58,794 bases of DNA from assembly GCA_964442615.1 (NCBI GenBank), contig CAYUAG010000009.1, positions 1 to 58,794 of the forward strand, written 5' to 3'. Position 1 is the first letter of the stretch; every line of letters begins with the position of its first letter. The notes below the pieces were generated by a model. The model was not told the origin of the DNA. It was given only the letters and a program-made list of their open reading frames with translations, and made no database searches. Source of the stretch: an uncultured bacterium (lineage in GTDB: Bacteria > Zhuqueibacterota > QNDG01 > CAYUAG01). Below are positions 12,839 to 58,678 of the stretch, in pieces. The translations under genes and the position numbers were made by a program.

Positions 12839-12846
12839 GGTAAGTA

Positions 12847-16536: not shown

Positions 16537-17802
16537 ATGGTTAGAAAAATATCTGTAAATAATAAAAATGAGGTTTTACCCTTAGCTGAAGCTTTTAATT
16601 CATTTAATAATATAATATCAGATTTGGATTTATCCTATAAAGATTTAAAAGGTAGTATTGAAGAGTTAAATTTGAAGATATCTGAAAAAAATAAATTTTT
16701 AGAAAAAAATTTTTTTGAGGTAAATAGAGTACGCTGCTTTTTTGATTCTATACTGAATAGTATGAGAGATGGAGTCATTGTTGTGGATATGAAAGGAAGA
16801 ATAGTGCTATTGAATAAAAGTATAAAAAAAATGACTGGTTATTCTGATTACGAGGTGATTGGAGAATCTTATAAAAAAATTTTTGGAAAAACAGTAAGTG
16901 AAAGGTTTTCTCCAATCTATACGCTATCACATAATATTCCTCTTGTTATGGAGGAGAAAGAGTTAACAACTAAATCTGGTAAAAAAATCCCTGTTCGTTA
17001 TAGTACTTCTATTGTTTATGATAGTGAAGATGAGGTGATTGGTGTGGTTGAAGTGAGCAGTGATTTGACCAGAATAAAAAGACTTGAAGTTCAGATGCAG
17101 AAGATAAAAACTCAAGCTGCATTAAATCAAATGGCAGGATTGGTTGCTCATGAAATAAGAAATCCTTTGGCTGGTATTAAGGGATATATAGATTTATTAA
17201 AAGAATCGTTTGATAAATCGGACAAAAAGCAAGAGAAAATCAATGAAATATATTCATTAATTAAAAAACTAAATAAGATCGTGGTTAATTTTATGATAAT
17301 GGCACAACCTATTAAACCCAATTTTGTTAAAACCGATATCATAGAATTTATACAAAATGTAACTGATTATTTTTGCTCAAAAAATAATTTAGAAGAAAAA
17401 AAAATAACACTTGATATTTCAATTCCCGAAGGTATGGATACTCTTTTGATAAATTGTGATCCCATATTAATGGAGCAGACCTTAATCATGATACTTGACA
17501 ATGCTGTAAAAGCTATGGACATAGGGGGAAATTTGGGAATAAAACTTAAAACAGAACATATTCAAGAGAGGAGAAAAAGAGAAATAGCCATTATAATTTC
17601 TGATTCAGGTTGCGGAATGTCAAAAGATGTTAAGAATAAAATATTTAATCCTTTTTTTACTACAAGAGATAAGGGAATGGGATTGGGATTATCACTTGCA
17701 AGGAATTTTATTAAGTTTCATGATGGTAATATTTTTGTAGAGAGTGAAGAGGGGATAGGAACAACAGTAAACATAATTTTACCTAAAAGTTATGAGGTAT
17801 AA
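16537..17802 (+). CDS. Soluble PAS histidine kinase, FleS/FlrB-like
   Basis: N-terminal LAEAFNSFN...L..SY..L coiled coil as in FleS-type kinases, PAS SMRDGVIVVD, H-box VAHEIRNPL, GMGLGL. Lies upstream of a bEBP and fliE. Confidence 0.85.
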   Translation: MVRKISVNNKNEVLPLAEAFNSFNNIISDLDLSYKDLKGSIEELNLKISEKNKFLEKNFFEVNRVRCFFDSILNSMRDGVIVVDMKGRIVLLNKSIKKMTGYSDYEVIGESYKKIFGKTVSERFSPIYTLSHNIPLVMEEKELTTKSGKKIPVRYSTSIVYDSEDEVIGVVEVSSDLTRIKRLEVQMQKIKTQAALNQMAGLVAHEIRNPLAGIKGYIDLLKESFDKSDKKQEKINEIYSLIKKLNKIVVNFMIMAQPIKPNFVKTDIIEFIQNVTDYFCSKNNLEEKKITLDISIPEGMDTLLINCDPILMEQTLIMILDNAVKAMDIGGNLGIKLKTEHIQERRKREIAIIISDSGCGMSKDVKNKIFNPFFTTRDKGMGLGLSLARNFIKFHDGNIFVESEEGIGTTVNIILPKSYEV

Positions 17803-19171
17803 AATGGTTAATAGAAAAATACTTGTAGTTGAAGATGATCCAATTCTTAGAAAATTTATTACTGATGTATTGGAAAAAAGAGGAGCTGAGGTAACTCGAT
17901 GTGAAAATGGAGAAAAGGCATTTAAAAAGATAAAGAGTAATTCATACCATTTGATATTAAGTGATTTAAAAATGGAAGGGATGGATGGTTTAGAATTACT
18001 TACAGAGACAAAAAAAATATCACCTTCAACAGAAGTAGTAATAATAACAGCGTATGGTACGGTTTCCAGTGCAGTCGAGGCAATTAAAAAAGGAGCTTTT
18101 GATTATATTACTAAACCCATAGAATTGGAAGAGCTTTATATAGTTTTAGATCGTGTGTTTGAGCATCAGAAACTTATTGATGAGAATAAATATCTAAAAG
18201 AGAGATTGAATAAAAATGATGCTACAAACAAAATTATTGGAAAGAGTCAAAAGGCTCAAAAAGTCAGAGAGCTTGTTGAAATGGTTGGGCCTCTTGATTC
18301 TACTATTCTCATACAAGGGGAAACAGGTACAGGTAAAGAAGTAATTGCTAATTCTATTCGCCAAATGAGTCCGAGAAAAGATGCACCCTTTATTAAAGTT
18401 AACTGTGCTGCTTTACCTGATACTCTTCTGGAGAGTGAGTTATTTGGTCATGAGAAAGGAGCTTTTACTGGTGCTATTCAAAAGTCTAAGGGGCGTTTTG
18501 AACTGGCAGATGAGGGCACTATTCTTCTAGATGAAATAGGTGAGCTTGGTCTTCAAGTTCAAGCTAAACTTTTACGTGTTCTTCAGTATCAACAATTTGA
18601 GCGGGTAGGAAGTGGTATAAGTATTAAAGTTGATGTACGTGTTTTAGCAACTACAAACAGAAATTTAAAAGAAGAAGTAAAAAAGGAAAAGTTTAGAAAA
18701 GATCTTTTCTTTAGATTGAACGTAGTTTCAATTACCAGTACTCCTTTACGTGAACGCAGAGAAGATCTGCCTTACTTTATTGAATATTTTCTACAAATGT
18801 ATAATAAAAAATATAATAAAAAGAAATCCCTTTCAAAAAAAGCCATGGAATTGCTGATTAAGTATGATTGGCCGGGAAATGTCAGAGAATTAGAAAACTG
18901 TATTGAGACTGCTATAATACTTAATCATGAGACAATTTTAGAACCTAAAACTTTTCTTTTTTTAGAGGAAAATCGGGATCTCCTGGAAGAAGGCAGTACT
19001 TTCAATTCCAATATGTCTATTGCTGAAGTAGAGAAACAGTTAATAATTAAAACTTATAGAAAAATGAATCATAATAAAACCCGTACTGCTAAAGTTCTTG
19101 GAATTACAATAAAAACTTTAAGAACAAAATTAAAAGAATATGGGGTTATAGAGTCTAAGAAAAAAGGGTAG
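17792..19171 (+). CDS. Sigma54-dependent response regulator, FleR/FlrC-like
   Basis: REC, GETGTGKE, ESELFGHEKGAFTGA, LLDEIGE, WPGNVREL and HTH. Position is directly before the flagellar genes. Confidence 0.92.
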   Translation: MRYKMVNRKILVVEDDPILRKFITDVLEKRGAEVTRCENGEKAFKKIKSNSYHLILSDLKMEGMDGLELLTETKKISPSTEVVIITAYGTVSSAVEAIKKGAFDYITKPIELEELYIVLDRVFEHQKLIDENKYLKERLNKNDATNKIIGKSQKAQKVRELVEMVGPLDSTILIQGETGTGKEVIANSIRQMSPRKDAPFIKVNCAALPDTLLESELFGHEKGAFTGAIQKSKGRFELADEGTILLDEIGELGLQVQAKLLRVLQYQQFERVGSGISIKVDVRVLATTNRNLKEEVKKEKFRKDLFFRLNVVSITSTPLRERREDLPYFIEYFLQMYNKKYNKKKSLSKKAMELLIKYDWPGNVRELENCIETAIILNHETILEPKTFLFLEENRDLLEEGSTFNSNMSIAEVEKQLIIKTYRKMNHNKTRTAKVLGITIKTLRTKLKEYGVIESKKKG

Positions 19172-19201
19172 AAAATACTCTTTAAATAGTGAAATATTTC
19201 C
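19167..19201. promoter_or_regulatory. Putative tandem bEBP enhancer sites
   Basis: GGTAGaaaATACT at 19167 and GTGAAataTTTCC at 19189, 22 bp apart, about 120 bp before the 19320 promoter. Confidence 0.5.
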
Positions 19202-19206
19202 TGGTT

Positions 19207-19248
19207 GGTCTTACCTTAATATTTTATATTAAGGTAAGACCTTTTTTT
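19207..19248 (+). terminator. Intrinsic terminator after the FleR-like gene
   Basis: Perfect 16-bp stem GGTCTTACCTTAATAT-ttt-ATATTAAGGTAAGACC followed by T7. Confidence 0.85.
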
Positions 19249-19319
19249 AAATTATTTTAAATTACTGATAATAAAATATTTATAAAACTCTAAATATTAA
19301 TTAGAGAATAGTGTATTGT

Positions 19320-19335
19320 TGGCATACCCCTTGCT
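19320..19335 (+). promoter_or_regulatory. Sigma54 promoter for fliE-flgD
   Basis: TGGCATACCCCTTGCT, near consensus. Confidence 0.85.
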
Positions 19336-19398
19336 TGAATTTTCTAATGGAATATTATAGATAATTAAGAAAGCCATAAAAATTATAAGGAGGAACAA

Positions 19399-19686
19399 GT
19401 GAATTCAATTTCAAATATTTCCGGTAAAAATCAAAATTCTGCATTTCCTATAAAAGAACCAGTACTGGTCGATAAAAATTTCAGTAAAACAATAAAATCA
19501 GCTTTACATGTGATTAATAATCTCATTCACGATTCTGGTGAAACTGTTAAGAAAATGTCTAAAGGAGAGATTAATGATATTCAAGATATGATGATAGCAG
19601 CTGAGAAAACCTCAATAGGTTTAGAATTAGTAGTTGAGGTCAGAAATAAACTGTTAGAATCATATTGCCATACATTGGGATTGTAA
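19399..19686 (+). CDS. fliE: Flagellar hook-basal body protein FliE with an aberrant C-terminus (possible pseudogene)
   Basis: F...K.A...N...GE..D..D.MIAAEK.SI.LE..VEVRNKLLESY is FliE-like. The usual QEIMRMQV-type end is replaced by CHTLGL. GTG start with AGGAGG RBS. Confidence 0.85.
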   Translation: MNSISNISGKNQNSAFPIKEPVLVDKNFSKTIKSALHVINNLIHDSGETVKKMSKGEINDIQDMMIAAEKTSIGLELVVEVRNKLLESYCHTLGL

Positions 19687-19803
19687 GTGTAATTTTTGTT
19701 TTAGTAATTTTGGGAGTTTTTGTAATGGATTTCATAGGTTCAGTAGAATCAAAGAATACAGTTGTCATGAAATATGTATATCAATAAGAGGAGGTGAGGT
19801 AAT

Positions 19804-20466
19804 ATGAGTACAGGACAGATCAATCAGGTAATTCAATCTCAACAGCAACAAATTAGTACGATTCAGTTCCAACAGTTAAGAAGATATACTTTTTTGAATC
19901 TTTTATTTACCCGGCTTAGTAATCAGAAGCCCCTTAATCTAATGGAAAATACAGAGTTTATTACTCAGTTGACAGAGATTAGTTCATTGGAACAATTGTA
20001 TTCAATCAATGAATCTTTGTTAGTAAGTCATAACATTAATAATTCAATTAATAGTTCATTGTTGACAAATTTACTCGGTAAAGGAGTTAAAGTAAAAAGT
20101 AATATTATCCACTATTCTGATGAATATACTCCTGGAATTGGGTATGATTTAGCAAAAAGTGGAAATATTTTTATACAAATATCTAATAGTTATGGAGAAG
20201 TAATTAGAAACATTGATCAGGGAATTCAAACTGCTGGTGAATATAGTGTAGAGTGGGATGGAAAAGATAAATCTGGAAATAAGGTAGAAGAAGGTAATTA
20301 TACCTTCAAAGTAGTAGTCCAGGATAGGGAAGGTGAGACCGAAGTAAGAGTTACATATTTAATTGGGAAAATATCAGGAGTAAAATTTAAAGATAGAAAT
20401 CAGGTTTTATTTATGGGAGATCAACCTGTTGATAGTTTAAAAATAATGTATGTTTGTATGTCTTAA
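19804..20466 (+). CDS. flgD: Flagellar hook-capping protein FlgD with degenerate motifs
   Basis: FLNLLFTRLSNQKPLNLMENTEFITQLTEISSLEQL resembles FL.LL..QL.NQDPL.P.D..EF..QLAQFS.LEQ. Ig domain WDGKDKSG....GNYTF. Confidence 0.88.
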   Translation: MSTGQINQVIQSQQQQISTIQFQQLRRYTFLNLLFTRLSNQKPLNLMENTEFITQLTEISSLEQLYSINESLLVSHNINNSINSSLLTNLLGKGVKVKSNIIHYSDEYTPGIGYDLAKSGNIFIQISNSYGEVIRNIDQGIQTAGEYSVEWDGKDKSGNKVEEGNYTFKVVVQDREGETEVRVTYLIGKISGVKFKDRNQVLFMGDQPVDSLKIMYVCMS

Positions 20467-20555
20467 ATTGTATTTTTAAATCTAATCTTAATTTTATCAT
20501 CCTCTCTTGTTTATAATCTTAAAAATTTTAATATTTTATTTTTTATTAATAATAA

Positions 20556-20590
20556 GTTAGAAAATACACCCCTAATAGTAAATTTTTAAC
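20556..20590. promoter_or_regulatory. Putative tandem bEBP enhancer sites
   Basis: GTTAGaaaATACA at 20556 and GTAAAtttTTAAC at 20578, 22 bp apart. 20555-20594 matches 19166-19205 at 28/40 positions without gaps. Confidence 0.45.
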
Positions 20591-20707
20591 TGGTCATTTT
20601 TTTATATTATATGTTAAGTGGTAAACAGTCTGTATTGTTGAGATTGTAAGTTTTTTAAATTTAAATAATTATATCACTCATAATATATTTTGTAATTGGT
20701 CTATTAT

Positions 20708-20723
20708 TGGCATATTGCTTGCT
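20708..20723 (+). promoter_or_regulatory. Sigma54 promoter for fliN
   Basis: TGGCATATTGCTTGCT (GG-N10-GC). Confidence 0.85.
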
Positions 20724-20846
20724 TAATAAAATATATTGGAAATAGAAATAGGGTAAAAAAATATTTAATGAGAAAAGTAACCAAGTAGTATAATTTCTTG
20801 CTTTTGGGAGTGAATGTTAGTGAAAAAATAAAAAGGAAATAAGACT

Positions 20847-21287
20847 ATGCAGAATATGGAAAATAAAAAGAAGAATATTGGAGAGAAGAAGAATAAAAAA
20901 CAGGATGTATTTTTTCAGAACAAAAAATTTACTACTATGGATGCAAAAAATAAGAAAGAAAATATAAACGAGCAGCAGTTTACTCTTGTTAACTTTAGTG
21001 AAAGAAAAGTTAAATCTGAAGATAATATTAATAGATTAATGGATCTGGAACTTCCTATATCGGTGGAATTAGGCAGAAAACGTTTGTTGGTAAAAGAGAT
21101 ACTTGAATTAGAACCTGGGGTAGTAATTGAGTTGAAAAAGTTTTCAGGTGAGCCCGTAGATATTTATGTTGATAATAAGAAGTTTGCAGAAGGGGAAGTA
21201 GTTAAAATAGAACAGAATTTTGGAGTAAGGATAACCGCCTTAGTGGGACCTGATGATCGGTTACCCAGGTTAGATAAGCATAAATGA
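20847..21287 (+). CDS. fliN: Flagellar motor switch protein FliN (SpoA domain)
   Basis: LMDLELPISVELGR...KEILEL.PG.VIEL.K..GEPVDIYV..K.FAEGEVV....NFGVRI. Confidence 0.92.
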   Translation: MQNMENKKKNIGEKKNKKQDVFFQNKKFTTMDAKNKKENINEQQFTLVNFSERKVKSEDNINRLMDLELPISVELGRKRLLVKEILELEPGVVIELKKFSGEPVDIYVDNKKFAEGEVVKIEQNFGVRITALVGPDDRLPRLDKHK

Positions 21288-21515
21288 GTTTAATTAAGTG
21301 AATATTTGGATTAGTAAAAAAAATATATTTTTTGATAAACTGAGTGTTTGTGTAGATTACCAAATTTCGGTTTAGTAACCAAAGTTAGAATGTTTATTTA
21401 ACGCAGAGTGCGCAGAGACAATTTAGTTTTTTTAGTATTGGTGGCCTTTGCGTTGAGAAGGAAATTTTAATAGATAAAACATATTATCATTTTTAGTTAG
21501 TTTTAAAATACAGTG

Positions 21516-21550
21516 ATTAATTATTTCCTAGTTAATAGGTAATTTTTTCC
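21516..21550. promoter_or_regulatory. Putative tandem bEBP enhancer sites
   Basis: ATTAAttaTTTCC at 21516 and GGTAAtttTTTCC at 21538, 22 bp apart, about 90 bp before the 21642 promoter. Confidence 0.55.
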
Positions 21551-21641
21551 AGTATTTTTTTACCATTTATCAGTTTTTAAAAAGTAATACTATATATTAA
21601 ATAATATTAAGGATTTAGAAAACATTAAAAAATTATTGAAA

Positions 21642-21657
21642 TGGCATGTCATTTGCT
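21642..21657 (+). promoter_or_regulatory. Sigma54 promoter pointing into the sensor-phosphatase array
   Basis: TGGCATGTCATTTGCT (GG-N10-GC). Confidence 0.82.
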
Positions 21658-21753
21658 TGTAGTAATAAATTGAGATGATGTTTTAAGAACAACCAAAAGT
21701 ATTCTGTAGTTGTAATTGATATTAATTAGAAGGTTCTTGAAAAAACCAAAATC

Positions 21754-22251
21754 ATGAATCCAGTTTTGATTTTAGAACATTCTCATGAGCAAGTTAGTAC
21801 TACCCTGAAGCAACAGAAAAAAGCAGTGGAAAACCAGAATAACATGGATGTGTGTCTCTGTGTTTTAGAGAAAAACGGTGGTCAGCAACTGTTATTTGCC
21901 GGAGCTAAGCGTTCCCTGTATATCATAAAACGAGGAGAGAATACACTAACTGAGATAAAAGGAGACCGAAAGTCCATTGGAGGAAGGCAGCGGGAGGAGG
22001 AGCGGGTATTTACCGGACATGAGCTTAAGGTTCGGAAAGGAGACAGGTTATACTTAACCACAGACGGATTTGCTGATCAGCAGAATTCAAAGAACAGACG
22101 ATATGGATCAAGACGGCTGAAAACTTTTCTACAGTCAGTTTCTGAGCTGGAGATGCAGGAGCAGGAGAAAGTATTAGCTCAGGAATTAGCCAGACATCAG
22201 GGTAAGGAGGAACAGCGGGATGATATTACGGTGGTAGGGGTGAAGATATGA
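21754..22251 (+). pseudogene. Array unit A0: C-terminal fragment of a SpoIIE/PP2C phosphatase
   Basis: Starts mid-domain at the internal Met of the paralogs' KIMNP. Lacks VSGDFY and DCTGHG, and DGMD has become NNMD. The 3' half is nearly identical to the paralogs (TTDG, RDDITV). Confidence 0.85.
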
Positions 22252-22269
22252 ATAACAGAATGAACAAGA

Positions 22270-25734: not shown

Positions 25735-28700
25735 TGATTGACAATGAAGTTAACATAATAATTCTTAGTATAGAGAATATATTTTTATAATAATTAAAGG
25801 AATTTGTTATGAAAAATCGTAAACAATGGTATTGGGTACAATTTTTTATATTTTTAGTTTTTAGTTGTGTTTACGCTTCAGACAAAGATATTCATTTTCA
25901 ACATATTACTATCAATGATGGTCTATCTCAAAATTCTGCCAATTGTTTACTCAGGGACAAGAAAGGATTCATGTGGTTTGGAACCCAGGATGGATTGAAT
26001 CGATTTGATGGGTATGAATTTACTGTCTATAGAAACGATCCCATGGACTCAACCTCAATATCTGATAATTATATTCTGTCTATGATTGAAGATTATACCG
26101 GAGCTATCTGGGTTGGAACCCAGAATGGATTAAATAGATTTTCTGTTGAGAAAGAGATATTCAAACGATATTGCTTTTGTACTGATAGTCCTTATTGCTT
26201 GTGTGACAAACAAATAAAAACTATTCATGAATCATTTGTTGAGCCCGGGATTCTCTGGATCGGTACTGAGAATGGGTTAAGTCAATTGAATGTTGAAAAC
26301 GAGCAAGTGACAAATTATTTTCACGATACTCAATAATTCAATAGTCTGATTCACAATAATGTGGAGGTGATTTATCAAACACGTTCACATCCAGAAGTCA
26401 TCTGGATTGGTACTGAGGGGGGATTGGATAAGTTTAATATAGAAAAGCAACAATTCATTCATTATCAATATGATCCGGATAATTCCAACAGTTTATGTCA
26501 TAATCATGTGATGGCCCTTTATAAAACTCCATCAGAACCGGGAGTGCTTTGGATCGGAACCAGGCATGGATTGGATCGATTTGATATGGAGAAAGAACAG
26601 TTTACTCATTACCGTCATAATCTCAATAATCCCAATAGTCTTATTCATGATTACATCAGGGCTATTTATGAATCCCCGGAAGAACCAGGAATACTCTGGA
26701 TAGGTACCTTTGGAGGAGGTTTGGATAAATTCAATAAAGCAAATAAAAAATTCACCCACTACGTTTATAAAATTGAAAATTCCAGCAGCATCAGTGATAA
26801 TTTTATTTTAAATTTTTGGGAGGATGAATCGAAAATTTTATGGATTGGAACTGAGGGAGGAGGAATTAATCAATACAATCGAGTTTCCAAACAGTTTCTA
26901 TTATATCAGCATGATCCTAATAATCCCAACAGTTTAAGCATTAATCACGTTCGCTCCATTTATGAATCTCCATTAGATTCAACTATTTTGTGGATAGGAA
27001 CCTACGATGGATTGAATAAATGGGATCGAGAGAGAGGGATTTTTACCTGCTATAATCATGATCCGAAAAATCCAAATAGTTTGAGCAGTAATTTGATACG
27101 GGTTGTTTATGAAGACAGAAGCGGTTTAGTATGGATTGGGACTTATAATGGTGGTCTCAATCAATTTGATCCTAAAACAGGAGTGTTTAATCACTATCGT
27201 CATGATCCGGATGATTCCTATAGTATAAGTAATGATTATGTCAGGACTTTGTATCAAGACAGATCAGGAGCGATATGGATAGGAGCGGTTGGAGGTGGAC
27301 TGGATCGTTTTGATAATAAAAATGGCCGTTTTTATCACTATACTTATAATCCAGATGATTCCACTGGTATAAACAGTGATCGTGTATATGCTATCTGTGA
27401 AGATAAAGAGGGTATTCTCTGGTTGGGAACATCTAAGGGATTGAATCGATTTGATCGAGAGTCAGAAACATTTACCTATTATACCCATGATCCAAATGAT
27501 CTTACAAGTATAGGGAATAATCTTGTTATGAGTGTTTATAAAGATAGAAGAGGACAGTTGTGGATAGGAACATGGGGAGGAGGAATAAACAGGTTTGATC
27601 ATCAGACTGAAAAATTTTATCGTTATACAAAAAAAGATGGTCTGGCTAATGATGTGGTGTATGGTATTCTTGAAGATAAGCAAGGAAATCTCTGGCTCAG
27701 CACCAATTATGGATTGTCAAAATTTAATCCAGAGAAAAAAACTTTTAAAAATTATGATGTGACTGATGGCCTTCAGAGCAATGAATTCAATGCTGGTGCT
27801 TATTATCAGAATATAAGAGGAAAAATGTTTTTTGGAGGAATCAATGGATTGAATGCATTTTATCCCGATAAAATCAGAGACAATCCCTATATTCCTCCTA
27901 TTGTGATTAATGATTTTCAGATATCGAATCAAACAGTTCCAATTAAGAGTCAAGATGAGGAAGATGTGATTTTATCAAAATCCATTATCTATACTAATGC
28001 AATTACTCTCTCTTATAAAGAGGATGTTATATCTTTTGAATATTCAGCACTGAATTATGTGTCTTCTGAAAAGAATCAGTACGCCTATATAATGGAGGGT
28101 TTGGATAAAGAGTGGAATTACGTAGGAGAGAGGCGTTTTGTAACCTATACTACTCTTCCTCCAGGTGAATATACGTTTCGAGTAAAAGGCTCCAATTGCG
28201 ATAGGATATGGAATGAGGAGGGAACATTTTTAAAGATCATCATTACTCCTCCTTTCTGGCAGACGTGGTGGTTTAAAATAGTAGCCGGGTTGTTACTCAT
28301 GGCCGTAGTTTATTTTATATTCTATCTTAAGACAAAGAGTTTTAAAAAAAGAGAGAAAAAACTTCAAAAAACTGTTCAGGAACGAACCAAGAAGTTAGAG
28401 CAAGCAAACAAAAATTCTAAAATCCTGAAAGATGAGGCTCAAAAGAAAGCTGTTCAATCTGATTTATTATATAGAATAGGGCAGAGAGTGAGTAGCGAAT
28501 TGGAAACAAAATCTCTTTTTAATGAAATAGTCAAGTCCATACGAAAAACTTATAATTATTTCCATGTAGCGATTTTATATTTAGATGAAAACACAGAAAA
28601 GATCAAATTAAAAGCCATATCCAGCGCTGAACCCGAAAAACATCTTAAAGAATTAACCCTGTCTTTAGGACAAGGAATGATAGGGCAGGCAGTTTTAACT

Positions 28701-49970: not shown

Positions 49971-50020
49971 AAATAAAGAGCAGACTTAATCAATTTGTTA
50001 GTTTCACAAAATATGTACAG

Positions 50021-53000
50021 GTGATTTTTAACAGAAGAAATACTATGCACATAAAGCTATTTGGGAATGAAAAAATTAATTGGAATGTGATTTTTTATTT
50101 ATGGATACTCGAATTTATTTTTATTGAGCCTGTTTATGTACAGTCAGGAAGGGATATCCGTTTAGAACAGATTTCCCTTGAACAGGGCTTGTCCCAAGTT
50201 ACAGTCAATTGCATACTTCAAGATAGACAGGGTTTCATGTGGTTTGGGACCCAGGATGGATTAAACAAGTATGACGGTTATCAATTTACAGTGTACCGCC
50301 ATGAACCAAATGATAGTACAAGTTTAAGTTATAATCTTATTTTATCGATATTTGAAGATCAGGACGGGTATCTGTGGATTGGTACTGAGGGAGGAGGATT
50401 AAATAGATTCAATCCTAATACTGAATCCTTTATTCATTATAAGAATCAAATTGGAGACTCACTCAGTCTTAGTAATAATTCTGTTTATTCCATTTTAGAG
50501 GATACCAGAGGTAACTTGTGGGTAGGAACTTATAATGGATTAAATAAGTTTGATCGAAACTTAAAAAAAATTATTCGTTATCAGAACCAGCCTAATAATC
50601 CCCATAGTTTGAGTCATAACAGAATTTCATTTATATTGGAAGATCACAATGGTAATCTGTGGATTGGAACGGAACATGGATTAAATAAATTTGAACAAAA
50701 TTCGGAATCTTTTATTTCTTACCTGAATAATCCTGATAATTCTCTAAGCCTTAGCAATAATAATATCAAGTCTATATTAGAGGATTATAGAGGTAACTTG
50801 TGGATTGGCACTTTTGGTGGTGGATTAAATAAATTCAATATAAAAACTGAAACCTTCACCAGTTACCAAAATCAAGTTGATAATCCCAACAGCCTTAGTA
50901 ATAATTTTATCATGTCAATTTTTGAAGATTCCAGAAACAACTTGTGGATTGGGACTTCTGGTGGTGGGATAAACAAGTTAAATCCAGAATCGGAGATTTT
51001 CATAAACTATCAGCACAAGCCTAATGATCCTAAAAGTCTTGGTAATAACATAGTAATGCCAATTTTTGAAGATAGAGGAGAAAATCTGTGGATAGGAACT
51101 ATTGGAGGCGGATTGAATAGGTTTGATCCTAAGACTGAATCCTTTACTTGTTATAAACACCAAGTAAATAATCCTTATAGTCTCAATAATAATTTTGTGT
51201 TGTCGATTTTTAAAGATTCGAATGATGACCTGTGGATCGGAACAGCTGATGGTTTAAATAAATTTAATCCACTAACAAAGATCTTTACATTATATCAGCA
51301 CTACAAGGATGATCCACATAGTCTTAGCCTTAACAATGTTATGTCTATTATTGAAGATACAGATGGCAGCTTGTGGATTGGGACTTATGGTGGTGGATTA
51401 AATAAATTCGATCGTAAAACTGAAACTTTCATCTGCTATAAGAACCAGGATGGCAATCCTGAAAGTCTAAGTAATAACTTTGTGTTAAGACTTTTGAAAG
51501 ATTCGGAAGGAATTTTATGGATTGGGACAAAAAATGGTTTAAATAGATTTGATGAAAAAACAGAAACTTTTACTCATTTTTGGCACCAAACTGATAATCT
51601 CCATAGTCTTAGCCATAATAATGTATATTCTATTTTTGAAGATTGCAGTGGAATCCTTTGGTTTGGGACACAAGATGGATTAAATAAATTTGATAGGAAG
51701 TCAGAAACCTTCACTCAATATAAAAATCAGGTTAATAATCCCCATACAATAAGTCATAATTTAGTCAGGTCGATTTATAAGGATGCCGAAGGTAACCTGT
51801 GGATTGGGACAGATGGCGGATTAAATAAACTTGTCCCGAGTGATAACGAGGGATCTCCCCCAACCTTCACTTGTTACAGAGAAAAGGATGGTTTGTCAAA
51901 TGATGTTATATATGGAATTCTTGAGGATGATAATGGTTGTTTATGGTTAAGTACCAATAAAGGAATTAGTAAGTTTAATCCTGAAATTAATTCCTTCATT
52001 AATTATGATGTAAAAGATGGTCTGCAAAGTAATGAGTTTAATACAGGTTCATGTTATAAGGATGGAAATGGTCAAATGTATTTTGGTGGAGTAAACGGTT
52101 TCAATGTTTTTCACCCTGATAGCATAATGAATAATACATATGTGACACCTGTAGTTATTACAGATTTTTTGCTATTTAATAAACCAGTGAAAGTATCCCG
52201 AAATGGCAACAAATCCGACCGGTTTGAACTACAGAAACACATAAATTTCATAGGAGAAATAACTTTAGATTATACGGACTACATTTTTGCTTTTGAATTT
52301 TCAGCTTTGAATTACCGGCAATCGGAAAAAAATCAATTTGCCTATAAATTAGAAGGTTTTAACAAAGAGTGGATTAAAACAGATCATCTTCACCGCAGAG
52401 CGACTTATACGAATTTGCCTCATGGCGAATATGTATTCAGAGTAATAGCTTCAAATGATGATGGCTATTGGAACGAGGAAGGTACCAGTATTACGTTGAC
52501 CATCCTTCCTCCATTTTGGAAAACCTGGTGGTTTCGAAGTCTGATTATTGCGTTCATTGTAGGGAGTGCTTTTAGTTGGTATAAAATGCGGGTTAGAAAT
52601 CTGGAGAGACAGAAACAGAAACTTGAAAAGCAGGTTAAAAAAAGGACAATAGAAATACGTTATAAGAATAAACAACTTATGGAGAAGAATAATCAGATAC
52701 AAGAAAAGAACGAACAGATCTTAAGCAGCATCCGATATGGGGAGCGTATTCAAAATGCTATTTTACCCCTTGCCGAAAAGATACGATCTTCTATACCCGA
52801 ACATTTCATTTTTTTTAAACCAAGAGATATTGTTTCAGGTGATTTTTACTGGTTTAATCAACTAGATGGAAAAACTGTTCTGGTTGTGGTTGACTGTACT
52901 GGTCACGGTGTGCCTGGAGCCTTTATGTCCATGATTGGTAACATTGTGCTCAACGAGATTATTATCGAACAACAGATTACTAATCCTAAAAAGATTTTAG

Positions 53001-53479
53001 AGCGTCTTCATGAAGAAGTACGAACTGCCTTAAAACAGGAACAAGAAGAAGGTGTTACCCAGGACGGTATGGATGTGTGTCTCTGTGTTTTAGAGAAAAA
53101 TAGTCATAAACAAGAGCTTTTATTTGCCGGAGCCAAGCGTCCCTTATATATTATAAAAAAAGGTGAGATTGAACTTATTGAAATAAAAGGTGACCGTAAG
53201 TCAATAGGGGGGAGGCAGCGGGAGAAAAATCGGGTATTTACCAGTCATGAGATAGAGGTTCAGAAAGGAGATCAGTTATATCTGACTACAGATGGTTTTG
53301 CAGATCAGCAGGATTCAAAGAACGGGCGGTATGGATCAAGGCGTTTGAAAACTTTTCTCCAGTCAGTTGCTGAGCTGGAAATGAAGGAGCAGGGAGAAGT
53401 ATTAGCTCGGGAAATAGCCAAGCATCAGGGTAGAGAAGAACAGCGGGATGATATTACAGTGGTTGGGATAAAGGTGTGA
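50021..53479 (+). CDS. Array unit A8: propellers, Y_Y_Y, TM, PP2C
   Basis: Blade repeats with NPNSL-type loops, YTNLPHGEYVFRV, PPFWKTWWF, intact PP2C motifs. Confidence 0.93.
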   Translation: MIFNRRNTMHIKLFGNEKINWNVIFYLWILEFIFIEPVYVQSGRDIRLEQISLEQGLSQVTVNCILQDRQGFMWFGTQDGLNKYDGYQFTVYRHEPNDSTSLSYNLILSIFEDQDGYLWIGTEGGGLNRFNPNTESFIHYKNQIGDSLSLSNNSVYSILEDTRGNLWVGTYNGLNKFDRNLKKIIRYQNQPNNPHSLSHNRISFILEDHNGNLWIGTEHGLNKFEQNSESFISYLNNPDNSLSLSNNNIKSILEDYRGNLWIGTFGGGLNKFNIKTETFTSYQNQVDNPNSLSNNFIMSIFEDSRNNLWIGTSGGGINKLNPESEIFINYQHKPNDPKSLGNNIVMPIFEDRGENLWIGTIGGGLNRFDPKTESFTCYKHQVNNPYSLNNNFVLSIFKDSNDDLWIGTADGLNKFNPLTKIFTLYQHYKDDPHSLSLNNVMSIIEDTDGSLWIGTYGGGLNKFDRKTETFICYKNQDGNPESLSNNFVLRLLKDSEGILWIGTKNGLNRFDEKTETFTHFWHQTDNLHSLSHNNVYSIFEDCSGILWFGTQDGLNKFDRKSETFTQYKNQVNNPHTISHNLVRSIYKDAEGNLWIGTDGGLNKLVPSDNEGSPPTFTCYREKDGLSNDVIYGILEDDNGCLWLSTNKGISKFNPEINSFINYDVKDGLQSNEFNTGSCYKDGNGQMYFGGVNGFNVFHPDSIMNNTYVTPVVITDFLLFNKPVKVSRNGNKSDRFELQKHINFIGEITLDYTDYIFAFEFSALNYRQSEKNQFAYKLEGFNKEWIKTDHLHRRATYTNLPHGEYVFRVIASNDDGYWNEEGTSITLTILPPFWKTWWFRSLIIAFIVGSAFSWYKMRVRNLERQKQKLEKQVKKRTIEIRYKNKQLMEKNNQIQEKNEQILSSIRYGERIQNAILPLAEKIRSSIPEHFIFFKPRDIVSGDFYWFNQLDGKTVLVVVDCTGHGVPGAFMSMIGNIVLNEIIIEQQITNPKKILERLHEEVRTALKQEQEEGVTQDGMDVCLCVLEKNSHKQELLFAGAKRPLYIIKKGEIELIEIKGDRKSIGGRQREKNRVFTSHEIEVQKGDQLYLTTDGFADQQDSKNGRYGSRRLKTFLQSVAELEMKEQGEVLAREIAKHQGREEQRDDITVVGIKV

Positions 53480-53488
53480 GAAATATAA

Positions 53489-56400
53489 ATGGATCAGGCA
53501 ATGAAAATTAAATTTATTCACTTTAACAATATTTCCTTTTGGAGACTTAGGTTTATTATTATAATTACAGTTTTGTTGGGTCCAATTACTGGCTTGGCGC
53601 TTGATCCAAATAAGGCTGTTACACAATATAGTCATGATGTGTGGCAGACAGAGGACGGTCTTCCACATGAAAACATTATAGCTATAATCCAAACACACGA
53701 CGGTTACATCTGGCTGGGGACACCAGTGGGGCTCGTCCGTTTTGATGGAGTACGGTTTACTCTATTTGATAAGAGTAATACAGCTAACATAAAAAATAAT
53801 AATATTACAGAACTTTTTGAGGACAGAGAAGGAACGCTTTGGATTGGTTCAGAGGGTGGATTATACCAATTGAATGATGGGGAATTTACCTTATATACTG
53901 TGAAAGATGGCTTATCAAGCAATTACATTAGGTCAATCTATGAAGATAAGGAAGGGAGTCTCTGGATAGGCACATACGGTGGCGGGGTAAATCGATTGAG
54001 AGATGGAAAATTCACATTTTACACTACACAAGAGGGTTTGTCTTACGATTATGTGATGTCTATCTGCGAGGACCGAGAAGGGAATCTTTGGATTGCCACA
54101 CAAGGACGTGGGCTTAATCGACTAAAAGATGGGAAAATTACTACTTATACCACTCAAGATGGTTTGTCTAATGATGTCGTGATGTCAGTCTATGAGGACC
54201 GGGAGGGAAATCTCTGGATAGGCACATACGGTGGCGGGGTAAATAAACTACAAGACGGAAAATTTACTTCTTATACTACCTCAGAAGGCCTGTCGCATAA
54301 TTCTGTTATTTCAATTGTTGAGGATAAAGATTGGAATCTGTGGATTAGCACTGATGGAGGGGGGGTGAGCCGGCTAAAAGATGGAAATTTTTCCACCTTT
54401 ACCACTAAAGACGGTCTGTCTAACAATACAGTACGGTCAATCTTTGAGGATAGAGAGGGGAGCCTTTGGATAGGCACATATGGGGGTGGATTGAACCGAC
54501 TTAAAGATGGAAAATTTACAACATACACTTCAAAAGAAGGGTTGTCTGGCGAACTTGTGATGTCAGTTTATAAGGACATGGAAGGCAGCCTTTGGCTTGG
54601 CACATCCGTTGGTGGCATAAATCGATTCAAAGATGGAAAATTTACAGCCTACACCACAAAGGAAGGGCTTTCGCATAAAATTGTGACGTCGATCTATGAA
54701 GACAGAAATGAAATCCTATGGATTGGTACACTAGGTGGCGGAATTAACCGATTTAAAGACGGAAAATTTACAATTTATGCCAGAAAAGAAGGACTGTATA
54801 ATCCCTATATAAGGTCACTCTGTACAAGTAAGGATGGTAGTCTTTGGATTGGCACACACGGAAGCGGACTTTTCTGCATGAACGATGAGAAATTTATAAA
54901 TTACACCGTAGAAGATGGTCTTTCTAACGGTATTATATGGTCAATATATGAAGACAGAAAAGGCTTCCTCTGGGTTGGCACAAATGGCGGGTTGAACCGA
55001 TTCAAAGACGGGGAATTTACAGTCTACACCACGAAAGAGGGATTATCTGACGATATCGTACTATCAATATATGAGGATAGAGAAGGAAACCTCTGGGTTG
55101 GTACACATCATGGCGGGCTAAATCTATACAGAGATGGGGAATTTACAACATATACAAAGCAAGAAGGACTGTATGAGGAAAGCATTTTTAAAATCCTCGA
55201 AGATAACAAAGGAAACCTCTGGATGAGTTCTATAAAGGGCATCTTCAGAGTCTGCAAAAAAGAACTTATTGATTTCGCCGATAGGAAAATTAAGTCAATT
55301 AATTCTTATGCTTATGACAAGGCAGATGGAATGAAGAGTAATGAATGCACTATTGGTTGCCCTGCAGGATGGAAAAGCAGTGATGGAAAATTATGGTTTC
55401 CGACTATGAAAGGTCTGGCAATGATTGACCCGGAAAATATAAAAACAAATGAACAGCCCCCACCTGTGATACTTGAGCAAATCATTATTGACAATGAATT
55501 AATTGACCTGGAGGAGAATGTCCCGTTCTCTCCGGGCAAAAAGAAATTTGAGTTTCACTATACTGGACTGAGTTTTTTGGTACCTGAGAAGGTTAAGTTT
55601 AAATACAAATTAGATGGATTTGATAAGGACTGGATAGACGCTGGTACACGCCGAACGGCTTATTACACCAACATTCCACCTGGGGATTATACATTTAAAG
55701 TTATTGCTTGTAATAACGATGGAGTATGGAATGAAACCGGTGCTTCCTTTCACTTTTATTTAAGATCCTATTTTTATCAGACGAAATGGTTTTATGGTTT
55801 ATGTGTTTTGTCCTTATTATCAATGGGATTTATGATTTACCGGTTACGAGTTCGACAATTGACGGCCCAGAAGAAGAAACTTGAAATAAAAGTAACAGAA
55901 AGGACAAAAGAGATCAGGGAACAGAAAGAAATTATTGAGCAAAAGAAGGAACAACTCCAAGAGAAGAACGAGCAAATTACGAGCAGTATCCGATACGCAA
56001 AACGTATTCAACAAGCGATTCTACCATTGGATGAAAGAATTCAATCTTTTCTGCCGGAACATTTTATCTTATATAAGCCGAAGGACATTGTCTCTGGTGA
56101 TTTCTACTGGTTCAATCAAATCAATGGTAAGATCCTTCTTGCGGTTGTGGACTGCACGGGTCACGGCGTACCCGGCGCTTTCATGTCCATGATCGGGAAT
56201 ATCCTGTTGAATGAAATCGTCAATGAGCTGCACGTCACCGATCCGGCATTGATTTTAGAGAATCTGCATATAGGTGTACGTTCTGCCTTAAAGCAGGAGA
56301 ATGGAGAGACTAATACAGATGACGGCATGGATATTTGCTTATGCGTTTTGGATAGGAAAATGAAAAATGTTGTCTTTGCTGGTGCAAAGCGTCCGCTTTA

Positions 56401-56746
56401 TTTAGTAAGGGGAAATAATCACGGTTTAGAACAATCTGAAATCATAGAAATTAAAGGGGATCGGAAGTCAATCGGTGGAAAACAAAGAGAAAAAAGACGC
56501 ACCTTCACGAGAAGGAAAATCAAAATTCAAGAAGAAGACGAAATTTATCTGATGAGTGATGGGTTTATCGATCAATCGGATACTGAGAATAGAAAATATG
56601 GAACGAAGCGAATGAAGAATTTCTTAGAGTCGATTGCGGGATTGGATGTTGAAAAACAGAAAGAAGCATTACTTCAGGAATTGGTGAACCATCAGGGAAA
56701 GGAAGAACAGAGGGATGATATTACCGTGGTGGGAGTAAGGGTGTAA
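53489..56746 (+). CDS. Array unit A9: short-blade propeller subtype, Y_Y_Y, TM, divergent PP2C
   Basis: ALDPNKAVTQY, 42-aa blades, YFYQTKWF. PP2C has YAKRIQQAILP, DCTGHG, DDGMD, MSDG, RDDITV. Confidence 0.93.
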   Translation: MDQAMKIKFIHFNNISFWRLRFIIIITVLLGPITGLALDPNKAVTQYSHDVWQTEDGLPHENIIAIIQTHDGYIWLGTPVGLVRFDGVRFTLFDKSNTANIKNNNITELFEDREGTLWIGSEGGLYQLNDGEFTLYTVKDGLSSNYIRSIYEDKEGSLWIGTYGGGVNRLRDGKFTFYTTQEGLSYDYVMSICEDREGNLWIATQGRGLNRLKDGKITTYTTQDGLSNDVVMSVYEDREGNLWIGTYGGGVNKLQDGKFTSYTTSEGLSHNSVISIVEDKDWNLWISTDGGGVSRLKDGNFSTFTTKDGLSNNTVRSIFEDREGSLWIGTYGGGLNRLKDGKFTTYTSKEGLSGELVMSVYKDMEGSLWLGTSVGGINRFKDGKFTAYTTKEGLSHKIVTSIYEDRNEILWIGTLGGGINRFKDGKFTIYARKEGLYNPYIRSLCTSKDGSLWIGTHGSGLFCMNDEKFINYTVEDGLSNGIIWSIYEDRKGFLWVGTNGGLNRFKDGEFTVYTTKEGLSDDIVLSIYEDREGNLWVGTHHGGLNLYRDGEFTTYTKQEGLYEESIFKILEDNKGNLWMSSIKGIFRVCKKELIDFADRKIKSINSYAYDKADGMKSNECTIGCPAGWKSSDGKLWFPTMKGLAMIDPENIKTNEQPPPVILEQIIIDNELIDLEENVPFSPGKKKFEFHYTGLSFLVPEKVKFKYKLDGFDKDWIDAGTRRTAYYTNIPPGDYTFKVIACNNDGVWNETGASFHFYLRSYFYQTKWFYGLCVLSLLSMGFMIYRLRVRQLTAQKKKLEIKVTERTKEIREQKEIIEQKKEQLQEKNEQITSSIRYAKRIQQAILPLDERIQSFLPEHFILYKPKDIVSGDFYWFNQINGKILLAVVDCTGHGVPGAFMSMIGNILLNEIVNELHVTDPALILENLHIGVRSALKQENGETNTDDGMDICLCVLDRKMKNVVFAGAKRPLYLVRGNNHGLEQSEIIEIKGDRKSIGGKQREKRRTFTRRKIKIQEEDEIYLMSDGFIDQSDTENRKYGTKRMKNFLESIAGLDVEKQKEALLQELVNHQGKEEQRDDITVVGVRV

Positions 56747-56767
56747 ATAGAGTAAACATCATATTTT

Positions 56768-57667
56768 TCATTCAAGAATAAAGTTAAAAGGATCTTGAGG
56801 AATATCATTATAGAAAACACCATAATGAAGATGAGGGGAAGTCGATTTGCCACTATTGCCAGTTAAACCGATTTCATCCCATCGTTCAATTTTTTGACCT
56901 ATTTTGACATGAATTTCTGATAAATGGGCGTAGAGTGTTTTATACCCAAAGCCATGATTTATTATTATGAATTTTCCATATCCTTTATTTTTTATAAAGT
57001 TTTCCCTGACAGCAACTATAGTTCCTCCACCAGTTGCTATTATTTTTGTACCAATTTCTGTACAGATATCTATTCCGGGATGTTCAACAGTTTTATTTGT
57101 AAATGGATCTTTTCTTTTACCAAAAGTTGATGAAATCCATCCTTTTCTAACAGGTCTAATGGAAGGATAGTGTGAAATTTTAAACATGCTCGAAGAAATA
57201 TTTTCTTTTAAATGAGACATGCTTTTATTTAACCAATTGATTTCATTTTCTATTTTTGATAATTCCATCTCTGTTTTTATGATTTCGGGATGATTAAAGT
57301 TTTTTAAAGATGGATAACTTTCTGGCCCTCCTACACCATATTGGATATTAGTGGTAGAATTTGGAGAGAGTATACTTATTTTTTTGTTTTCTTTTTTTAA
57401 TTTATTTAAATGCATTAAAATGGAATCAGTTCTGTCCTGCCATGAACTAAATTTTATCCGTAATAAATTATTTTCATTTTTTAAATTATAGATTTTAAAT
57501 TCATTAACACCTTTAAATAGAAATTGTGCTAAAGGTAATGATATTAGAATGAATATCACTAATAGAGTTATTAACATAAGTAAACCCTTTAACCTTGATA
57601 GATATGTACTGTATGATTTTTCACTTTCTGTTTCAATAAGTGTTAAAATGTAATGTTTTTTAGCCAT
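56768..57667 (-). CDS. M23 family metallopeptidase (peptidoglycan endopeptidase) with N-terminal TM and coiled coil
   Basis: ISSTFGKRKDPF, HPGIDI (HxxxD), GYGKFIII.H, YAHL, TGNSGKSTSPHLHY (HxH). Confidence 0.93.
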   Translation of the reverse strand: MAKKHYILTLIETESEKSYSTYLSRLKGLLMLITLLVIFILISLPLAQFLFKGVNEFKIYNLKNENNLLRIKFSSWQDRTDSILMHLNKLKKENKKISILSPNSTTNIQYGVGGPESYPSLKNFNHPEIIKTEMELSKIENEINWLNKSMSHLKENISSSMFKISHYPSIRPVRKGWISSTFGKRKDPFTNKTVEHPGIDICTEIGTKIIATGGGTIVAVRENFIKNKGYGKFIIINHGFGYKTLYAHLSEIHVKIGQKIERWDEIGLTGNSGKSTSPHLHYGVFYNDIPQDPFNFILE

Positions 57668-57709
57668 TTTTTCCTTTAATTTTATTTAATTATTTTTATA
57701 CTTACTTAT

Positions 57710-57725
57710 TGCAAATATAGTGCCA
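57710..57725 (-). promoter_or_regulatory. Sigma54 promoter for the M23 peptidase
   Basis: Minus strand TGGCACTATATTTGCA is a perfect TGGCAC-N5-TTGCA, 43 bp before the start codon. Confidence 0.9.
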
Positions 57726-57863
57726 TAATTATATATAAAGTAGTTAGTTGCTGAATTAATATTTTAAGAATTTTAGTATTTTTTGAAACAAATAATATTG
57801 TAAGGTTAACAAAAAGATAAACTATAATTTTTTAAATTAAATTTGTTTAGATGATATTATTGT

Positions 57864-57898
57864 GGTATTTATTTCCTATATATCTGGTAATGTTTACC
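57864..57898. promoter_or_regulatory. Putative tandem bEBP enhancer sites shared by the divergent promoters
   Basis: GGTATttaTTTCC at 57864 and the perfect palindrome GGTAAtgtTTACC at 57886, 22 bp apart, between the two promoters. Confidence 0.65.
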
Positions 57899-58006
57899 TA
57901 AATTTTTTTTAATTTTATTTAATATATTAGATAAATAATATAAAAATAAATAATAAAAAATAAATACTTAGCAGGAAATTATATAATTCATTTTAAAAAT
58001 AAATCA

Positions 58007-58022
58007 TGGCATGTGGTTTGCA
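58007..58022 (+). promoter_or_regulatory. Sigma54 promoter for flgN
   Basis: TGGCATGTGGTTTGCA (GG-N10-GC). Confidence 0.85.
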
Positions 58023-58183
58023 TTTTTAAAAATTGAAAATAAAAGAGAGTGATGTTGTGATAAAAAAGTTTATGAAGATTTTTTAAGTAGTAAATTATAT
58101 TTATTGTGTTTTGAAAGAATTTAATTAGAATCAAGAGCGGATTTTATCGGAATTTGTATAATTATTTTGTGAAGGGGAAATTT

Positions 58184-58678
58184 ATGGCTATTATTTTTGA
58201 AAAAGATGATGATAATAACATCAAGATGGAACAATTGGTTAAACAATTAACTGAGATTGTAGTAGACGAAGTTAATGCTTATAAGTTGCTTTTGGATGCT
58301 TTGGTTGAACAACAATCAGCGATTTTAAAAGGAGATTCTGAATTTGTTTCAAATTCAAATATTGAAGTTGATAAAATCATAAAAAAAACAAAAGAACTGG
58401 GCAAACAAAGAAAAGGAACTTCTGAGGATTTTTTAGACTATTTGGAAGTTGCAGGAGAGATAAGCTTAGATAATATAATTCCTCATATTGAAACGAAGTA
58501 TGCAAAACGTTTAAAAGAGTTCAAAAATATTTTGAAAATTTTATCCGAAAAAGTTCAGACAACAAATAAACGGAATAAATATTTACTTGAAAATTCTTTT
58601 GAATTTGTAGATAAATGTTTAAAAATGCTAACTGAAGAACAAAATATGACAAAGAATTATACAATTTTCTTGAGATGA
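58184..58678 (+). CDS. flgN: Flagellar export chaperone FlgN, C-terminus probably truncated (ORF track start is 58154)
   Basis: Helical pattern L..I...E..AY..LL.AL.EQQ.AI..GD...L...R...L...N..N..LL..S..FV...L. ATG at 58184 follows AAGGGG. Confidence 0.75.
   Translation: MAIIFEKDDDNNIKMEQLVKQLTEIVVDEVNAYKLLLDALVEQQSAILKGDSEFVSNSNIEVDKIIKKTKELGKQRKGTSEDFLDYLEVAGEISLDNIIPHIETKYAKRLKEFKNILKILSEKVQTTNKRNKYLLENSFEFVDKCLKMLTEEQNMTKNYTIFLR

Follow-up and report, generated by a model that had tools for sequence, protein, structure and literature searches.

A probable collinear relic of a flagellar gene cluster, with retained FleS/FleR regulators and fliN, in an uncultured bacterium of the Zhuqueibacterota

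Genes and promoters of the locus

The 58,794-nucleotide stretch considered here (the window) is the entire contig CAYUAG010000009.1 of a metagenome-assembled genome (MAG) from an uncultured bacterium of the Zhuqueibacterota (GenBank GCA_964442615.1), and it carries a two-component pair of the FleS/FleR type followed by the flagellar genes fliE, flgD, fliN and flgN, with a tandem array of sensor phosphatase genes and a gene for an M23 peptidase between fliN and flgN (Table 1). The genome (3.58 Mb, 146 contigs, 85.7% complete, 1.9% contaminated) is referred to as G000 and its contigs by number, the window being C9; the sequencing runs that contain the window are labeled marine sediment metagenome. 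A first-pass annotation had named the regulatory pair and the four flagellar genes, all of which were recovered in place with Pfam. Its count of only four flagellar genes proved incomplete: the response regulator upstream of FleS and the M23 gene are also ancestral members of the cluster, and fliW, csrA and remnants of flgK and flgL lie on contig C85.

By Pfam, the pair has the domain arrangement of FleS and FleR (a PAS-HisKA-HATPase kinase adjoining a REC/sigma-54 AAA+/HTH_8 regulator). Their orthologues (50% and 70% identity) immediately precede flgB in G019, which is flagellated and belongs to the same order, and there too they follow the same response regulator. FleR orthologues at 68-74% identity occur in 11 other genomes of the order. 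Five exact matches to the sigma-54 pattern TGGCAYN5TTGCW fall in the window against 0.07 expected, a count reached in 0 of 100 shuffles, which bears out the near-consensus sigma-54 promoters described at first pass. These sites precede fliE, fliN, the phosphatase array, M23 and flgN; genome-wide, G000 has 18 such sites, and rpoN is present on C114. The 9-mer TATTTCCTA (at most one mismatch), considered as a possible common activator site, was found in 6 of 6 relic promoter regions and in 2 of 12 other sigma-54 regions of G000; picked post hoc and present in only 4 of 15 promoter regions of relatives, compared with 7.5% of random windows, it was dropped.

All four flagellar frames (fliE, flgD, fliN and flgN) are full length and unbroken, with GGAGG ribosome-binding sites ahead of fliE and flgD. 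Of the earlier statement that three of the four show damage, what stands is a loss at the level of substitutions, confined to FliE and FlgD, while FliN and FlgN lie within the flagellated range. FliE keeps 10 of the 16 columns that are invariant in ten flagellated relatives (16/16 to 16/21 for flagellated sequences in a leave-one-out control), ends in ESYCHTLGL instead of the conserved EAYxExMRxQ-type tail, and scores 60.2 bits in the genome search, the lowest of 14 genomes (83-106 in the 13 flagellated ones); its identity to homologues in the order (43-53%) is nevertheless about the same as that among flagellated genomes, a point against simple decay. FlgD retains 14 of 21 invariant columns (control, 21/21 to 21/24), with its losses in the N-terminal motif and its Ig-like domain intact. 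The FlgD N-domain, at 46.5 bits, is likewise the lowest of 14 genomes (68.6-90.4 in flagellated ones), and FlgD is moderately more diverged, with 38-39% identity to homologues in the order versus 45-50% among flagellated genomes. In FliN, a Lys/Asn-rich N-terminus precedes a SpoA domain that keeps 26 of 28 columns conserved at 90% or more (flagellated range, 25-28), and the genome search gave FlgN 58.9 bits, a value inside the span of 44-93 covered by the top FlgN matches of the individual flagellated relatives.

Table 1. Features of the relic cluster in the window, with the basis for each assignment. PP9 is a member of the phosphatase array; percentages are amino-acid identities
Feature	Position	Strand	Basis or remark
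Response regulator (REC + SHOCT)	15923-16528	+	Pfam; 36% to G019 RR233, same position upstream of FleS
FleS-like cytoplasmic PAS-HisKA-HATPase kinase	16537-17802	+	Pfam; 50% to G019 cluster-head kinase; 77% to congener G002
FleR-like sigma-54 activator (REC, AAA+, HTH_8)	17792-19171	+	Pfam; 70% to G019 FleR
Sigma-54 -24/-12 element before fliE	19320-19335	+	Position of flgB promoter in G019
fliE	19399-19686	+	Pfam PF02049 60.9 bits (cut-off 22.4); open frame, C-terminal motif lost
flgD	19804-20466	+	Pfam FlgD (PF03963) 45.1 bits, FlgD_ig (PF13860) 59.4 bits (cut-off 27 each)
Sigma-54 -24/-12 element before fliN	20708-20723	+	Counterpart of G019 fliL promoter
fliN	20847-21287	+	Pfam PF01052 82.8 bits (cut-off 23.8); 69% to G019 FliN
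Sigma-54 -24/-12 element before phosphatase array	21642-21657	+	Pattern match
C-terminal SpoIIE fragment, 165 aa, truncated array member	21754-22251	+	Pfam; 72-79% to eight array members, 50% to PP9
Nine tandem Reg_prop/Y_Y_Y/SpoIIE sensor phosphatase genes	22270-56746	+	Pfam, paralogue table
N-terminal phosphatase fragment within array	25809-26336	+	Pfam
M23 peptidase	56768-57667	-	42% to 299-aa opposite-strand M23 inside G019 cluster
Sigma-54 -24/-12 element before M23	57710-57725	-	Also before M23 in G019, G002, G009, G025
Sigma-54 -24/-12 element before flgN	58007-58022	+	Also in G002
flgN	58154-58678	+	Pfam PF05130 59.3 bits (cut-off 30.5); 41% to G019 FlgN, 52% to G002 FlgN

Comparison with flagellated relatives and with the rest of the genome

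The flagellar genes of G019, of which a 60-kb stretch was taken and 54 open reading frames were annotated, form a single contiguous cluster of approximately 45 genes in the order response regulator, FleS, FleR, FlgB, FlgC, FliE, FliF, FliG, FliH, FliI, FliJ, FliK, FlgD, FlgE, MotA, MotB, FliL, FliM, FliN, FliO, FliP, FliQ, FliR, FlhB, FlhA, FlhF, FlhG, FliA, response regulator, M23 (opposite strand), FlgF, FlgG, FlgA, FlgH, FlgI, FlgJ, FlgN, FlgK, FlgL, FliW, CsrA. Ten of these genes have counterparts in G000, namely fliW and csrA on C85 and eight on C9 in unchanged order and orientation (tblastn identities of 43% for FliE and 38% for FlgD, the other six as in Table 1). The window is collinear with the G019 cluster minus five blocks (flgBC; fliF-fliK; flgE-fliM; fliO to the regulator after fliA; flgF-flgJ), and the first-pass statement that the survivors keep the gene order of complete clusters is confirmed by this comparison. 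Sigma-54 sites in G019 stand before flgB, fliL and M23, and the fliE and fliN promoters of the window are the counterparts of those of flgB and fliL; the deletions therefore took genes and spared the heads of transcription units. Within the five short spacers of the window, no relic gene fragments were detected, tblastn at E≤5 having returned wrong-strand or chance-level matches only.

In the flagellated relatives, the arrangement is contiguous and not dispersed: at all 10 fliE loci the flanking genes are flgBC and fliF, at 11 of 13 flgD loci the genes that come next are Flagellar_put and flgE (of the other two, one is cut by a contig end and one has the flgE match only), and at 11 of the 12 loci retrieved for fliN the gene has fliM and/or fliO as a neighbor. 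No complete flagellar set was found elsewhere in G000, either with Pfam core families or by tblastn with G019 proteins. FHIPEP (PF00771), Flg_bb_rod (PF00460), YscJ_FliF (PF01514) and Flagellin_N (PF00669) gave 0 matches in G000, with positive control genomes, and a single FliMN_C match was obtained, compared with two (FliM and FliN) in flagellated genomes. When 56 open reading frames of the G019 cluster stretch were searched against the G000 genome by tblastn (E≤1e-3), 27 named flagellar proteins had no match, including FlhA, FlhB, FliP, FliQ, FliR, FliH, FliJ, MotA, FliG and FliM. FliI, FlhF, FlhG, FliA, MotB and one response regulator matched non-flagellar paralogues only, at 23-36% identity (e.g., FliI to F1-type ATPase genes at ~30% and MotB to an OmpA-type gene at 29%). 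The weak FliA match, on C121, was rejected as a flagellar relic, being a sigma factor with region 1.2 that adjoins an NlpD-like M23 gene; this second M23 peptidase and its neighbor (C121 6568-8647; L094 3569-5648) make up an NlpD/RpoS-like pair without relation to the relic.

The junctions FleR-fliE, fliE-flgD, flgD-fliN and M23-flgN are all internal to C9. Among four DNA runs of one study that were compared, unitigs from two runs of one sample tile positions 16537-22032 without differences, and a second sample of the same study yielded just short identical pieces over the stretch. C9 ends 116 bases past flgN (position 58794). On C85, fliW (45% to G019) and csrA (47%) are intact and adjacent, and directly upstream of fliW lies a broken flgL (C85 = L035, 15127-15960, minus strand) in which residues 1-117 and 134-219 of 376 persist in two frames, with a Flagellin_N score of 20.6 bits that falls below the cut-off of 26.6; a 24-residue tail of flgK is found beside it. 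The same contig has a sigma-54 site at 13873 before a gene for a 123-aa single-domain response regulator, which is followed by a hybrid kinase with an Hpt domain. C85 probably continues C9, since in the congener G002 flgN is followed directly by fliW-csrA; no overlap between the two contigs was found.

The first-pass annotation had described the fliN-flgN interval as now holding the phosphatase array and an M23 peptidase, as though both were newcomers. This holds for the nine-gene array, which occupies the place of fliO-fliR, flhB, flhA, flhF, flhG, fliA and the response regulator in G019. The M23 gene, by contrast, is an ancestral member of the cluster: in G019, it encodes 299 aa at the same place and on the opposite strand with its own sigma-54 site, and it adjoins fliN or flgN in G002, G009 and G025. 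No array lies between fliN and M23 in G009, and G025 has fliN, M23 and flgN within 3.3 kb, also with no array. The nine paralogues are 50-98% identical over their last 165 residues, from 98% between PP2 (three GAF domains and a PAS domain) and PP6 (one GAF domain) to 50-58% for the most diverged member, which adjoins M23 (53489-56746). G+C content climbs from ~0.28 to ~0.37 at the start of the array, and no other copy of the phosphatase subfamily was found elsewhere in the G000 genome. A link between fliN and the array outside the genus was considered and rejected: G007 has a phosphatase gene near fliN, but unrelated genes (PRK, MgtC, ROK) lie between the two.

Retention of the same genes in flagellum-less relatives

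The distribution of the survivors was followed in G000 and 40 relatives. FlhA occurs in 13 of the 40, and FliE and the FlgD N-domain are found in precisely the same 13. The sole genome with FliE or FlgD and no FlhA is G000, and three congeners that are 93-96% complete also have neither FlhA nor FliE. The order is represented by 31 genomes, five with FlhA and 26 without. Eight of these 26 (G000, G007, G008, G009, G013, G014, G025 and G027) have one FliMN_C match, and the same eight have a FleR orthologue (68-74% identity), with the caveats that G018 has a 58% FleR match and no fliN and that FleR of G002 is cut by a contig end. Seven of the eight have FleS, FleR and fliN side by side on a single contig, and in G025 the three are spread over two contigs. 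Wherever the region ahead of fliN could be judged (seven genomes), a sigma-54 site immediately precedes the gene (six exact, one with one mismatch). The fullest parallel is G009, in which the skeleton is as in G000 minus fliE, flgD and the array; M23, FliW, CsrA and a diverged FlgN (25% to that of G019, pairwise E 2e-12) are kept. When genome contigs were scanned with FliN, the 7 loci obtained (32-69% identity) included no additional lone fliN.

That these losses were independent is suggested by a FleR gene tree of 11 rows (eight flagellum-less, three flagellated; the partial G006 and the distant G018 and G035 sequences were left out), in which the flagellated G019 is sister to the flagellum-less G009 (97/97). 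Three state changes are needed on this tree, and its well-supported branches force at least two, so that the same gene subset appears to have been kept after independent losses of the flagellum. Ratios of nonsynonymous to synonymous divergence (dN/dS) were estimated by the Nei-Gojobori method. Between G014 and G027, flagellum-less congeners with the same deletion architecture, dN/dS is 0.19 for fliN (at a synonymous divergence, dS, of 0.6), 0.04 for FleR and 0.10 for FleS; between G000 and G002, it is 0.10 for fliW, 0.045 for csrA, 0.17 for M23, 0.40 for flgN and 0.13 for FleS, ratios that are rough because dS (0.74-1.86) is near saturation. fliN, fliW, csrA and M23 are thus under purifying selection. 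The survivors are more than leftovers: seven other flagellum-less relatives also have FleS-FleR-fliN, and M23, flgN, fliW and csrA recur in some of them.

Several further features accompany these genes. The lone FliN proteins of G007 (L028 7925-8842; 305 aa) and G013 (L031 7527-8393; 288 aa) have an N-terminal part of approximately 200 residues with no Pfam match, and the flagellated G035 and G037 also have FliN proteins of ~290 aa. A complex prediction for two FleS copies and FliN residues 55-146, supplied as alignments, scored 0.08 (mark, 0.32) and is uninformative on binding either way. A complete set of chemosensory genes is present, on C2 1-9387 (L067), which encodes a methyl-accepting chemotaxis protein (MCP) with seven HAMP domains, CheW, CheY, CheB, CheA, CheC and CheD, and on C80 14514-17872 (L066), which encodes CheY, CheW, CheR-TPR and CheW behind a sigma-54 site; G000 has three MCP genes. 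FliN as the output of this retained system was considered and set aside, the link not being specific because CheW-domain genes occur with or without fliN (in 27 of the order's 31 genomes, at least 12 of which have no fliN).

Upstream of the relic, the window holds three other groups of genes. Directly before the FleS region, positions 7975-15424 form a signaling block of a hybrid PAS/GAF kinase, an NtrC-type sigma-54 activator, two CheY-like regulators and a receiver-containing PAS kinase. Synteny of this block extends to G002, at 73-84% amino-acid identity, and in part to G014 and G027. Positions 2004-7362, with a G+C content of 0.40 versus 0.29, carry two Na+/alanine symporter paralogues, an SNF-family transporter and a 153-aa partial SNF copy. 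Lastly, a 507-aa protein encoded at 4-1527 has a type IX secretion C-terminal sorting domain, and the same stretch matches the FlgD Ig-like profile; it is non-flagellar.

Origin and possible role of the retained genes

In all likelihood, the window is a collinear relic of a contiguous flagellar super-cluster in a flagellum-less lineage that has kept the regulatory scaffold and probably reused fliN. The proposal made at first pass, that motility was lost by successive deletions while the scaffold persisted, holds in its core, in that no machine was found and the cluster is collinear apart from the five missing blocks, although the order of the deletions is not resolvable.

Four other explanations were weighed. 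Were the organism flagellated, the missing genes would have to lie on unassembled or unbinned contigs as a dispersed system, for which an 85.7% complete MAG and a contig that stops 116 bases past flgN leave some room; the relic junctions, however, are internal to one contig, whose stretch 16537-22032 is tiled identically by unitigs, the four core families and 27 proteins were not found in 3.58 Mb, the three congeners (93-96% complete) are also without FlhA and FliE, and gene order is contiguous in all flagellated relatives examined, which together make this explanation highly improbable. Least credible is that the remnants serve a reduced flagellar-type export machine of the kind proposed for Lysobacter enzymogenes. 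In its favor, FlgD is exported and FliN belongs to the sorting platform. The remaining export genes of Lysobacter are also reported to be working (PMC7688988), but G000 has no export gate: FlhA gave 0 matches, FlhB, FliP, FliQ, FliR, FliH and FliJ had no match, and FliI matched only F1-type ATPases.

The other two explanations concern what became of the retained genes. Pure decay, in which fliE, flgD, fliN and flgN are dead and not yet deleted and their promoters persist by chance with no function, would account for the loss of about one third of the family-invariant residues of FliE and FlgD and their lowest Pfam scores of 14 genomes, for the broken flgK and flgL as decay in progress, and for the occurrence of fliE and flgD in no other flagellum-less genome searched. 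It is nonetheless unlikely in view of the four full-length frames with ribosome-binding sites and consensus promoters, the co-occurrence of fliN and FleS/FleR in seven further genomes without a flagellum (from two or more independent losses; dN/dS 0.19), and the dN/dS of 0.05-0.17 for fliW, csrA and M23 between two flagellum-less congeners. Conversely, all retained genes, fliE and flgD included, might have been co-opted into a new, FleS/FleR-controlled function. Their frames have stayed intact over a seemingly long time, fliE and flgD have their own promoter and ribosome-binding sites, and the phosphatase-M23 and M23-flgN junctions are common to G002 at a dS of ~1, so that an export gate had probably been lost before G000 and G002 diverged. 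Against this stand the absence of fliE and flgD from all seven other fliN-keeping lineages, the fact that the changes fall on residues invariant in working flagella, the lack of an obvious destination for two normally secreted proteins in a cell with no export gate, and the circumstance that the ancestral status of the shared junctions is deduced from one cut G002 contig; co-option of the whole set is accordingly doubtful, if somewhat less so than pure decay.

The reading of the window as a relic with a retained scaffold, with different fates for different genes, fits these observations best. FliN, together with FleS/FleR, has probably been selected for a flagellum-independent role, in what we regard as nearly an even call, and fliE and flgD are probably, with somewhat greater assurance, late leftovers under relaxed constraint. 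Selection may still have retained fliE and flgD, given that their frames are intact and the junctions are apparently common to G002. A number of points weigh against this reading as a whole. The absence of flagellar genes rests on the assembly and the direct junctions and not on a closed genome (an 85.7% complete MAG in 146 contigs); the FleR tree describes one gene, has 11 rows and leaves several forks unresolved; the G000-G002 ratios suffer from the near-saturation noted above; and the stretch from FleR to the array is unassembled in G002, which makes this congener uninformative on fliE, flgD and fliN. In addition, FliN of G007, G008, G009 and G013 keeps 14-18 of the 28 conserved columns, which fits a changed function or relaxed constraint, and no common upstream activator site was found among the relic promoters of G000 and its relatives. 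Finally, fliE and flgD are absent from every other FlhA-negative genome searched, and a scan of metagenome contigs for FlgD returned 9 loci (the best at 41% over 63 residues, longer matches at 32-34%) and no close relative.

If the relic is active, FleS would phosphorylate FleR, which would then open sigma-54 RNA polymerase complexes at the five promoters of the window and at one on C85. These promoters would drive fliE-flgD, fliN, at least the start of the array, M23, flgN (probably on to fliW-csrA) and the single-domain response regulator. The output of the circuit would now be mostly cytoplasmic or regulatory (FleS, FleR, FliN, FlgN, FliW and CsrA), joined by a cell-wall peptidase and, in this genus, by sensor phosphatases, the array of which probably expanded in the gap within the genus. 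The dependence of the promoters on FleR, the expression of the genes and any new function are what we infer from the arrangement of the locus. More tentatively, and with slightly less than even confidence, FleS-FleR-sigma54-FliN may constitute a flagellum-independent signaling module kept after at least two losses, in which FliN, a component of the C-ring and the sorting platform, has turned into a regulator in the cytoplasm, or a cofactor, for what was once the flagellar checkpoint circuit.

Several features of the locus have counterparts in known systems. The signal for a FleS-type kinase is usually tied to basal-body assembly, as in Campylobacter. The G000 pair resembles the FleS/FleR (FlrB/FlrC, FlgS/FlgR) class in its domain architectures, in its position at the cluster head before flgB (in G019) and in the TGGCAY-N5-TTGCW promoters before the rod and switch operons, but its regulon no longer holds a buildable machine. 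Likewise, fliW and csrA are adjacent after the late flagellar genes, as in G019 and in keeping with the FliW-CsrA partner switch of Bacillus and Campylobacter, in which flagellin is the third partner; unlike in those bacteria, flagellin is absent in G000. We know of no function outside flagella or injectisomes for fliN, whose product belongs to the switch and the sorting platform. A limited literature search turned up no paper on FliW and CsrA in nonflagellated bacteria and no report, by title or abstract, of lone fliN retention in flagellum-less bacteria.

The closest precedent is Legionella longbeachae, which has no flagellar genes except FliA, FleN, FleR/FleS and FlgD, with conserved flanking genes and a chemotaxis operon (PMC2824747, PMC5655016). 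G000 conforms to the relic-regulon type that this species exemplifies, with regulators kept and the machine deleted within conserved surroundings (PMC2824747). FleS/FleR and FlgD survive cluster deletion in L. longbeachae and its subclade as in G000, and chemosensory genes persist without a flagellum (in G000, CheA, CheW, CheY, CheB, CheC, CheD, CheR and three MCP genes). G000 differs in belonging to another phylum, in not keeping FliA and FleN/FlhG (matches at the level of paralogues only), and in keeping FliE, FliN, FlgN, FliW, CsrA and M23 as a single collinear cluster with sigma-54 promoters; retention of fliN, moreover, recurs over several independent losses in its order. Lysobacter enzymogenes OH11, also non-flagellated, offers a second case of flagellar genes in a flagellum-less bacterium for which a new use has been proposed, its leftover type III export genes being reported as co-opted (PMC7688988, PMC9927559). 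It is reported to keep an active export apparatus (FlhB, FliI and others), which G000 lacks entirely.

Loss of the flagellum with its regulators kept is thus known from Legionella and raises the question of why particular genes survive. What is added here is the convergent retention of FleS-FleR-fliN across an order, often with M23, flgN, fliW and csrA. As an ancestral contiguous cluster can be set beside several independently reduced states, a gene-by-gene comparison becomes possible, in which the same small subset survives each time and fliN emerges as a candidate gene for functions outside the flagellum, linked to a sigma-54 two-component system. The order also offers a natural series for following the rewiring of a large regulon after the loss of its machine. 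For annotation, matches to FliE, FlgD, FliN or FlgN in such genomes should not be equated with motility. If the module proposed above is real, its circuit would steer cell-wall remodeling, translation under the control of CsrA and, in this genus, numerous sensor phosphatases.

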